Shown: positions 39,386 to 43,461 of the stretch, piece by piece | Layout: each line of letters opens with the position of its first letter | How positions within the stretch are numbered: position 1 is the first letter of the stretch | NCBI RefSeq assembly: GCF_053078305.1 | Contig: NZ_CP166879.1 | Direction: 5' to 3' (one strand) | Length of the DNA stretch: 64,000 nucleotides | The notes under the pieces: generated by a model | What the model saw: the letters and a program-made list of their open reading frames with translations, nothing else | What the model was told of the DNA's origin: nothing | Databases searched by the model: none | Program-made: the position numbers and the translations under genes

Positions 39386-40147
39386 TTACCGCCACATCGC
39401 GTGTTTATCGCGATAGCAATCGACCCACATCGCCGTCGCGCCACAAACGGCAACGGGCATGATGAACAGATTAAGCAGCGGGATCATCGTAAACAGGCTG
39501 GTTAAAGCACCAAACTGCATATTGGTGATTTTGCGTGTGCGCAGGGCGGTGCGCATCTCTTTAAACGGCACTTTGTGGTTATCGAAGGGGTAATCGCAAT
39601 ACTGGATGGCTAACATCCAGGCGCTAAACAGGAACCACAGTACCGGCGCGACGGTTTGCCCAATACCAGGGATGAAGTAAAGAATTAGTAATACAATTGC
39701 GCGCGGCAGATACCAGGCAAATTTTTGCCATTCGCGTTTCATGATTCGCGGCACATCTTTCATGATACCGAAAATCCCGGTATCTGGCGGTGTAGCGCCA
39801 GTCAATCGTGCTTCCAGTTGTTCAGCCAATAAACCGTTAAACGGAGCGGCAATCCAGTTAGCAATCGTGGAGAAGAAATAGCCAAACACTAACAGCACAG
39901 AGATGACAGCCAGAGGCCACAACAGATAGCTCAGCCATTGTAACCAGTCCGGAACATAACTCATGAGAGTCGGGATCCAGACATCGAGTTGCGTAAAGAG
40001 CCACCAGAATGCGCCCCCCATCAACAAAATATTGACCAGCAGCGGTAAAATAACGAAACGCCGAATCCCAGGTTGCGAGACGAGCTTCCAGCCTTGCGCA
40101 AAATAGTAAAAACCGCTGCGTGGGGCAGATGTGAATGATGAAACCAT
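39386..40147 (-). CDS. cysZ: sulfate transporter CysZ
   Basis: 253 aa membrane protein. Confidence 0.95.
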
Positions 40148-40376
40148 AATCAGGATGAGCTCCTTTTGACCAATCCCAGGAAAATTGTGCGTATTTTACC
40201 GGGTAATTGCGCAATGGACAGTTAGGATATGTTCGAAAAAACAGCAAAAAGCACGATTTCATCTATCTTTGTGCTGTGAAAGTTAATAGTGCACTTGCAC
40301 TTGAGGTAATCGGCAAATACTCTTAGTGAGTAAATGTTTGCCGTGGTGGCAAGGTGTTAGAACAACAGAGAATATA

Positions 40377-41375
40377 ATGATGCAGGATTTGCGTCTGATA
40401 TTAATCATTGTTGGCGCGATCGCCATAATCGCTTTACTGGTACATGGTTTCTGGACCAGCCGTAAAGAACGATCTTCTATGTTCCGCGATCGGCCATTAA
40501 AACGAATGAAGTCAAAACGTGACGACGATTCTTATGACGAGGATGTCGAAGATGATGAGGGCGTTGGTGAGGTTCGTGTTCACCGCGTGAATCATGCCCC
40601 GGCTAACGCCCAGGAGCATGAGGCTGCTCGTCCGTCGCCGCAACACCAGTACCAACCGCCTTATGCGTCTGCGCAGCCGCGTCAACCGGTCCAGCAGCCG
40701 CCTGAAGCGCAGGTACCGCCGCAACATGCTCCGCGTCCAGCGCAGCCGGTGCAGCAACCCGTGCAGCAGCCTGCCTATCAGCCGCAGCCTGAACAGCCGT
40801 TGCAGCAGCCAGTTTCGCCACAGGTCGCGCCAGCGCCGCAGCCAGTGCATTCAGCACCGCAACCGGCACAACAGGCTTTCCAGCCTGCAGAACCCGTAGC
40901 GGCACCACAGCCTGAGCCTGTAGCGGAACCGGCTCCAGTTATGGATAAACCGAAGCGCAAAGAAGCGGTGATTATCATGAACGTCGCGGCGCATCACGGT
41001 AGCGAGCTAAACGGTGAACTGCTTCTTAACAGCATTCAACAAGCGGGCTTCATTTTTGGCGATATGAATATTTACCATCGTCATCTTAGCCCGGATGGCA
41101 GCGGCCCGGCGTTATTCAGCCTGGCGAATATGGTGAAACCGGGAACCTTTGATCCTGAAATGAAGGATTTCACTACTCCGGGCGTCACTATCTTTATGCA
41201 GGTACCGTCTTACGGTGACGAGCTGCAGAACTTCAAGCTGATGCTGCAATCTGCGCAGCATATTGCCGATGAAGTGGGCGGTGTCGTGCTTGACGATCAG
41301 CGCCGTATGATGACTCCGCAGAAATTGCGCGAGTACCAGGACATCATCCGCGAAGTTAAAGACGCCAACGCCTGA
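40377..41375 (+). CDS. zipA: cell division protein ZipA (FtsZ membrane tether)
   Basis: In frame of ORF 40326..41375; start at ATG 40377 ([23 protein letters not shown] anchor); long Pro/Gln-rich linker; C-terminal FtsZ-binding domain. Confidence 0.93.
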
Positions 41376-41404
41376 TACACTTAAGGCAAATTAACTCCTC
41401 TTCG

Positions 41405-41428
41405 AACCCCCGCTTGTCGGGGGTTTTT
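41405..41428 (+). terminator. intrinsic terminator / attenuator between zipA and ligA
   Basis: ACCCCCG-CTTGT-CGGGGGT followed by TTTTT. Confidence 0.7.
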
Positions 41429-41436
41429 AGCATTGA

Positions 41437-43461
<2,025 letters not shown>

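Follow-up and report, generated by a model that had tools for sequence, protein, structure and literature searches.

zipA, its neighbors and the domains of its product

The window (the whole stretch of 64,000 nucleotides that was analyzed) includes zipA, which lies between a CysZ-like ORF on its 5' side and a LigA-like ORF on its 3' side. This cysZ-zipA-ligA order is the synteny seen, based on RefSeq annotations, in every homologous locus that we fetched. Within the translated gene, Pfam ZipA_C (PF04354) is matched at aa 198-321 (E 3.2e-46), and the TIGR02205 "septum_zipA" (cell division protein ZipA) equivalog scores 417.6 bits across aa 4-324, against a cut-off of 119.65. In addition, annotated zipA is matched by the window DNA at 100%. 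Each feature tested places the window gene in the ZipA family. The gene is listed as ancestrally essential in Enterobacteriaceae (PMC11481867). The features of the locus are as follows:

39386-40147, minus strand: CysZ-like ORF, the 5' neighbor of zipA
40377-41375, plus strand: zipA CDS, 332 aa plus stop (Pfam, TIGRFAM, and the RefSeq start)
40395-40460, plus strand: transmembrane anchor, aa 7-28 (hydrophobic aa 7-26; K-12 boundaries from PMC6904479)
40461-40631, plus strand: charged domain, aa 29-85 (acidic/basic stretch; boundaries from PMC6904479; identical to K-12)
40632-40943, plus strand: P/Q-rich linker, aa 86-189, K-12 aa 86-185 (composition, GC, indels)
40944-41372, plus strand: C-terminal FtsZ-binding globular domain, aa 190-332 (Pfam ZipA_C; solved structures)
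41446-43461, plus strand: LigA-like ORF, the 3' neighbor of zipA

A mechanically called ORF starts at a GTG at 40326, 51 nt before the ATG (40326-40376), and would encode 349 aa. We rejected this GTG as the zipA start, given that RefSeq and the family models both point to the ATG at 40377; the identical zipA of strain YZMc3-1 has the same RefSeq start. It should be noted that a genuine allele with a 17-aa duplication (P0003) happens to be 349 aa long as well, so length alone can mislead tables of ZipA size. The upstream GTG is one annotation trap at zipA, and the off-frame ORFs described below are another.

Between the zipA stop codon (41373-41375) and the ligA start there is a G+C-rich hairpin at 41404-41428 (CCCCCG-CTTGT-CGGGGG) followed by TTTTT, with a fold of -15.5 kcal/mol (z -3.3). 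It resembles an intrinsic terminator or attenuator, and was not among the matches of the terminator pattern scan.

The K-12 domain map, as given in the part of PMC6904479 that cites Ohashi et al. 2002, places aa 1-6 in the periplasm, with a transmembrane segment at aa 7-28, a charged domain at aa 29-85, a P/Q domain at aa 86-185, and the FtsZ-binding domain at aa 186-328. The same order is found in the window protein, in which a single N-terminal transmembrane anchor is followed by a charged region and then a linker that is 56% P+Q. Solved structures (1F46, 1F47, 1F7W) cover the C-terminal domain from aa 189/193 to aa 332 of the window protein, and all structure matches are constructs of this domain only, except 9iue, for which the full 328-aa chain was deposited. 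Incidentally, 9iue is an entry with 18 chains, and may reveal any order that the linker has in a complex. The P/Q domain is described as a flexible tether where PMC6904479 cites Ohashi et al. 2002, and the structural study itself found the domain to be more compact than a free-ranging peptide (PMC6904479). The composition of the window linker suggests that it, too, would be a disordered Pro/Gln-rich tether, the role as a tether being taken from this literature.

The earlier note had assigned positions 40590-40960 (aa 72-195) to a repetitive Pro/Gln-rich linker of ZipA. Pfam ZipA_C and TIGR02205 bear out the assignment, and the peptide that it quoted (PQHQYQPP...) is present in the window protein. 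The coordinates cover the linker, with a slight overshoot on both sides. None of this is new: the gene, the domain architecture, and the role of the P/Q tether are already known and are textbook material, and the feature is ordinary. The window allele is also common to thousands of sequenced genomes, so the value of the locus for discovery is small.

Composition and repeats of the linker DNA

The linker is low in complexity and rich in proline (31% P, 25% Q, 15% A, 10% V), without hydrophobic core residues, a composition that fits a disordered linker. At the DNA level, GC content is 0.63-0.69, compared with about 0.45-0.53 in the flanks, and T makes up 13%. The commonest codons are CAG (19) and CCG (16), in agreement with the description of the segment in the earlier note as low-complexity, CAG/CCG-rich DNA.

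Tandem Repeats Finder (TRF), even at a minimum score of 30, identified no tandem array in the linker. A repeat search returned five diverged copies (76-100%) of a 17-nt motif, CARCCGGTNCAGCAGCC (the PVQQ motif), as well as a few repeats of 10-12 nt. All repeat spacings in the linker are multiples of 3. The repeats that matter for what follows, all on the plus strand, are

40636-40645 and 40717-40726: 10-nt perfect direct repeat CGCCGCAACA, copies 81 nt apart (repeat search)
40671-40679 and 40740-40748: 9-nt perfect direct repeat GCGCAGCCG, copies 69 nt apart (junction of the 309-aa deletion allele)
40683-40876: five dispersed copies of the 17-nt PVQQ-type motif, starting at 40683, 40743, 40755, 40794, and 40860 (repeat search)
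40749-40772: two tandem 12-nt units, GTGCAGCAACCC and GTGCAGCAGCCT, encoding PVQQPVQQ (sequence)

The pair of 12-nt units is the sole head-to-tail repeat in the linker, and its two copies are 10/12 identical, with 8 nt of identity (GTGCAGCA) at the unit boundary. Several of the dispersed repeats coincide with the ends of length changes found in other strains. Copies 1 and 4 of the 17-nt motif mark the ends of a 111-nt deletion in strain EM10-18-28, copy 1 and copy 2/3 do so for the 308-aa allele, and the 10-nt repeat bounds the inferred 81-nt tandem duplication of the 355-aa allele P0002.

A VNTR would be expected to comprise several near-identical head-to-tail units, and to vary in copy number between strains. 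The linker lacks an array of that kind, whereas the 12-nt unit does vary between strains (one, two, or three copies). A reading of the linker as a true VNTR was dropped because TRF found nothing even at its lowest threshold. The linker DNA is compositionally biased and has dispersed short repeats, and it is not a true tandem array. Thus, the word "repetitive" in the earlier note is weakly true: it is appropriate for the five diverged 17-nt copies and the two 12-nt units, but finds no counterpart in TRF.

Length alleles in E. coli and their junctions

The window zipA is 999 bp in length, compared with 987 bp (328 aa) in the K-12 derivative MC4100. The window protein has one additional 12-nt PVQQ unit (+4 aa) and R120 instead of H120, and the remainder is identical. 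The impression of a linker slightly longer than that of K-12 was therefore correct, by exactly this one unit.

Allele frequencies were determined for 5,427 E. coli records holding zipA, using two independent searches. With a 200-nt query placed across the indel, 3,042 records matched at 90-95% (all sampled rows in this class span 188 nt) and 2,384 at 95% or more, and coverage was below 80% in 62. The second count made use of a synthetic query with three units, which separated the classes cleanly: one copy of the PVQQ unit in 3,040 records, two in 2,316, three in a single record, and some other arrangement in ~70. In other words, ~56% of records searched have the one-unit allele (K-12 type, 328 aa) and ~43% have the two-unit allele of the window (332 aa). 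The three-unit allele, read at the DNA level, is that of strain 700481 (336 aa, full length). Linker length had been proposed as something to tabulate across E. coli genomes, and it is clearly not identical, given the one-, two-, and three-unit states and the larger indels described below.

Records sampled by name from the two-unit class include O157:H7, O55:H7, UTI89, S88, APEC O1, IAI39, SMS-3-5, CE10, and ST648, and those from the one-unit class include K-12, ATCC 8739, O111:H8, and O91. Judged from these names and their phylogroups, the 12-nt state appears to track deep lineages, and this argues against rapid switching. The one- versus two-unit state could serve as a clean typing marker, apparently a lineage-linked one.

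A few placements of the gene are odd. Among 5,426 "complete" E. coli genomes, one has no megablast match to the essential zipA, two matches are on records labeled as plasmids, and one genome has zipA in two places. Possible causes are mis-assembly, mislabeled replicons, or a divergent lineage.

The direction of the change was established by parsimony, using the named outgroup proteins from E. albertii (331 aa) and E. marmotae (330 aa). At the PVQQ position both have QPVQQPQPV(P/Q)QP, and the DNA at this position comprises two 18-nt units. Here the window spans 30 nt and K-12 spans 18 nt, both shorter than the outgroup form. Parsimony therefore makes the one-unit state of K-12 a derived contraction and puts the window nearer to the ancestral length, rather than making it an expansion. 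K-12 may have arisen either from the window form by loss of 12 nt or directly from a two-unit ancestor by loss of 18 nt. Consequently, the expectation that such repeats expand and contract is right in that copy number ranges from one to three among strains, but the extra length of the window is not an expansion.

The same two species provide a measure of constraint. Relative to them, the linker has 15 nonsynonymous codon changes and the FtsZ-binding domain just one, with 29-35 synonymous changes in the latter. Overall, the linker accounts for 15 of the 16-18 interspecies nonsynonymous differences, plus all of the indels, and it evolves faster in both sequence and length than the folded domains that flank it. 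Nevertheless, ZipA is 328-332 aa long in ~98.7% of the records searched, and 330-331 aa in both sister species, which hints that total length may be under stabilizing selection.

Larger changes are much rarer: alleles other than those of 328 and 332 aa together make up ~1.3% of complete genomes, and all but ~9-14 of about 65-70 atypical complete-genome records could be assigned to an allele. The deletion alleles counted in these records are

300 aa: 96 nt deleted relative to the window, with the junction on CGCAGCC; 30 records, one of them labeled O103
309 aa: 69 nt deleted between the GCGCAGCCG copies at 40671 and 40740; 22 records, including an O25:H4 strain
308 aa: deletion between PVQQ motif copies, with the junction CAGCAGCC; 3 records
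295 aa: 111 nt deleted between motif copies 1 and 4; 1 record (EM10-18-28)

For these counts, we used junction queries of 56-57 nt and counted rows that aligned in a single piece. Junction queries of 200 nt are unsuited to this purpose because flanking pieces of normal alleles get joined.

A large protein collection gave 2,076 matches at E<=1e-60, of which the best 120 were examined. Because this collection is clustered at 90% identity, small indels are hidden. Among the matches listed, ZipA named as E. coli ranges from 301 to 375 aa, and the complete genomes add the proteins of 295 and 300 aa. In total, there are at least 21 distinct deletion classes (19 from the protein collection, and two, those of ML775 and EM10-18-28, from complete genomes) and at least seven duplication classes among the listed E. 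coli ZipA. Alleles found only once, in draft or metagenome assemblies, may in some cases be assembly errors. Based on pairwise and multiple alignment, essentially all of the length differences are within the linker, except in a few proteins that appear to be artefacts of frameshift or truncation. Rare small in-frame indels (+EDV, 335 aa; -DED, 323 aa; +E, 333 aa) are also present in the acidic portion of the charged domain (aa 54-56 and 79; nt about 40536-40544 and 40611-40613), and thus length change is not wholly confined to the P/Q domain.

The duplications that could be read at the DNA level are perfect. The 349-aa allele has a 51-nt tandem duplication bounded by CAGCCG, and the 354-aa allele has a 39-nt unit, bounded by TGCAGCAGCC, in three copies; duplications of 9, 69, 81, and 141 nt were seen at the protein level. 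The 309-aa allele (OZ039818.1; protein P0081) occurs in 1,861 indexed blocks of an assembly collection (827 contigs), and looks like the marker of a successful clone.

Deletion junctions coincide with direct repeats of 5-11 nt much more frequently than chance would predict. Across the 21 classes, mapped onto two parental DNAs, the median junction microhomology is 7 nt, compared with a mean of ~0.9 for a null that comprises all in-frame deletions of the same size within the linker (a "best equivalent breakpoint" rule was applied to both observed and null deletions). Individually, 14 of 21 classes have P<=0.05, and the Fisher combined P is ~4e-14; seven of 21 have microhomology of 3 nt or less. 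Most of these junctions were inferred from proteins, as only the alleles of 295, 300, 308, 309, 336, 349, and 354 aa were read at the DNA level.

A mechanism that would account for these observations starts with codon usage. Since the linker is written nearly entirely in CAG, CCG, CCN, and GCN codons, its DNA is GC-rich and poor in T, and holds many short (5-17 nt) direct repeats, all in a single codon phase. The natural deletions and duplications have their ends on such repeats and are in frame in every case. Misalignment between such repeats, either by replication slippage or by short-homology recombination, could generate both deletions and tandem duplications, and repeats that share a phase would make these indels in frame automatically. 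Length variants presumably survive because a flexible tether tolerates a change in length, as it depends on being roughly long and flexible enough and not on a particular sequence, and frameshifts are never seen, presumably because zipA is essential. Both the mechanism (slippage versus recombination) and the tolerance of length change are inferred. The lack of any array detectable with TRF means that classical microsatellite or VNTR slippage is the wrong picture for most events. The proposal of expansion and contraction by slippage is thus retained in part: misalignment at repeats is supported by junction microhomology and by perfect tandem duplications, but there is no array, and the locus does not appear to be a fast-switching one.

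Alternative readings and comparison with known systems

Taken together, we consider it very probable that the segment is a disordered P/Q linker that gains and loses in-frame pieces by misalignment of short repeats, that the window has a common two-unit allele, and that the K-12 state is derived. Length polymorphism is in itself unsurprising for a low-complexity linker. We found no literature on natural variation in zipA linker length, although literature coverage was incomplete; an mBio 2021 paper on ZipA has the globular domain, not the linker, as its subject.

It could be argued instead that lineages carry specific, selected linker lengths because tether length affects how the Z ring is anchored, when the cell divides, or how susceptible it is to stress or phage. 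There are reasons to take this seriously. The two large deletions of 96 and 69 nt each occur with identical junctions in many independent complete genomes (30 and 22 records), the 309-aa protein is widely indexed (the 1,861 blocks noted above), ZipA keeps to 328-332 aa in the large majority of E. coli and to 330-331 aa in the two sister species although its sequence is prone to indels, and tolA offers a precedent (PMC3477136). However, sharing within a lineage is predicted equally well by neutral hitch-hiking in successful clones, no literature was found that ties zipA linker length to a phenotype, and alleles other than 328/332 make up only the ~1.3% of complete genomes noted above. We thus regard selected lengths as an unlikely explanation overall. 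The specific claim that the tether-length alleles (~295-375 aa), some fixed in epidemiologically successful clones (309 aa in the lineage with O25:H4 strains, 300 aa in the one with an O103 strain), are selected variants seems to us slightly less probable again. If it were true, the alleles could alter the attachment of FtsZ filaments to the membrane, with effects on division or stress phenotypes, and zipA would join tolA as an example of adaptive variation in the length of an intragenic region, in this case in an essential gene. Whichever way this falls, the alleles amount to a natural in-frame deletion and duplication series for the tether of an essential division protein, and can be used to ask how length matters.

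A second alternative is that the PVQQ unit behaves as a contingency locus, its copy number flipping often within clones in the manner of phase variation. States with one, two, and three copies of the 12-nt unit do exist, and the unit boundary has the 8-nt identity noted above. Against this, there are just two copies, imperfect ones that fall under any TRF threshold, copy number appears to be fixed by lineage in every sampled named record, and three copies occur in only one of the 5,427 records. We consider frequent switching very improbable.

The least credible alternative is that one of the off-frame ORFs over the linker is a real overlapping gene. Five ORFs that are not in the zipA frame, of 48-112 aa, occur on both strands across 40512-40997 in the ORF list, and we judged them spurious, as the earlier note did:

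40512-40850, minus strand: 112 aa
40594-40899, plus strand: from the ORF list
40603-40908, minus strand: from the ORF list
40778-40978, minus strand: from the ORF list
40851-40997, minus strand: from the ORF list

No stop codon interrupts four of the six frames over a stretch of at least 240 nt (40606-40850, ~245 nt), and indels in multiples of three would leave an off-frame gene (e.g., the 112-aa ORF) intact, but an equal number of open frames is found at 7.4% of all window positions (the density over the linker is not exceptional), the translations are low-complexity (R/L-rich or A/G-rich), a Pfam search with the four largest gave no match, stop counts in the off-frames are not the same in E. 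coli, E. albertii, and E. marmotae, RefSeq annotates nothing besides zipA over the linker in the fetched loci, and the low T content fully accounts for the open frames, because stop codons need T and A. On the open-frame background, the interspecies stop counts, and the Pfam result, an overlapping gene across the linker was rejected, and we give it almost no credence.

The preferred reading, in-frame misalignment between short repeats in a tolerant tether, can be set beside several known systems. The nearest is ZipA of K-12 itself, which has the same gene, the same order of domains (transmembrane, charged, P/Q, and FtsZ-binding), and the same neighbors, cysZ and ligA, and differs in that the window has one extra PVQQ (332 vs. 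328 aa) and R120 rather than H120. The disordered C-terminal linker of FtsZ and the P/Q-rich linker of FtsK are likewise low-complexity, length-variable, and sequence-tolerant spacers in division proteins, each separating a globular domain from a partner close to the membrane, but these are different proteins from ZipA. As regards the polymorphism, the closest analogue is tolA, in which the length of a true tandem array differs from one E. coli strain to another and modulates stress tolerance (Zhou, Michiels & Aertsen 2012, PMC3477136), with array contraction at ~7e-5 and dependent on RecA (PMC3477136). Like zipA, tolA encodes an envelope/division protein with a low-complexity, extended middle domain that gains and loses repeats in frame among strains, and its variants are all functional to some degree. 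Unlike tolA, zipA has only dispersed repeats of 5-17 nt and a two-copy 12-nt unit, and far fewer variant alleles per genome set.
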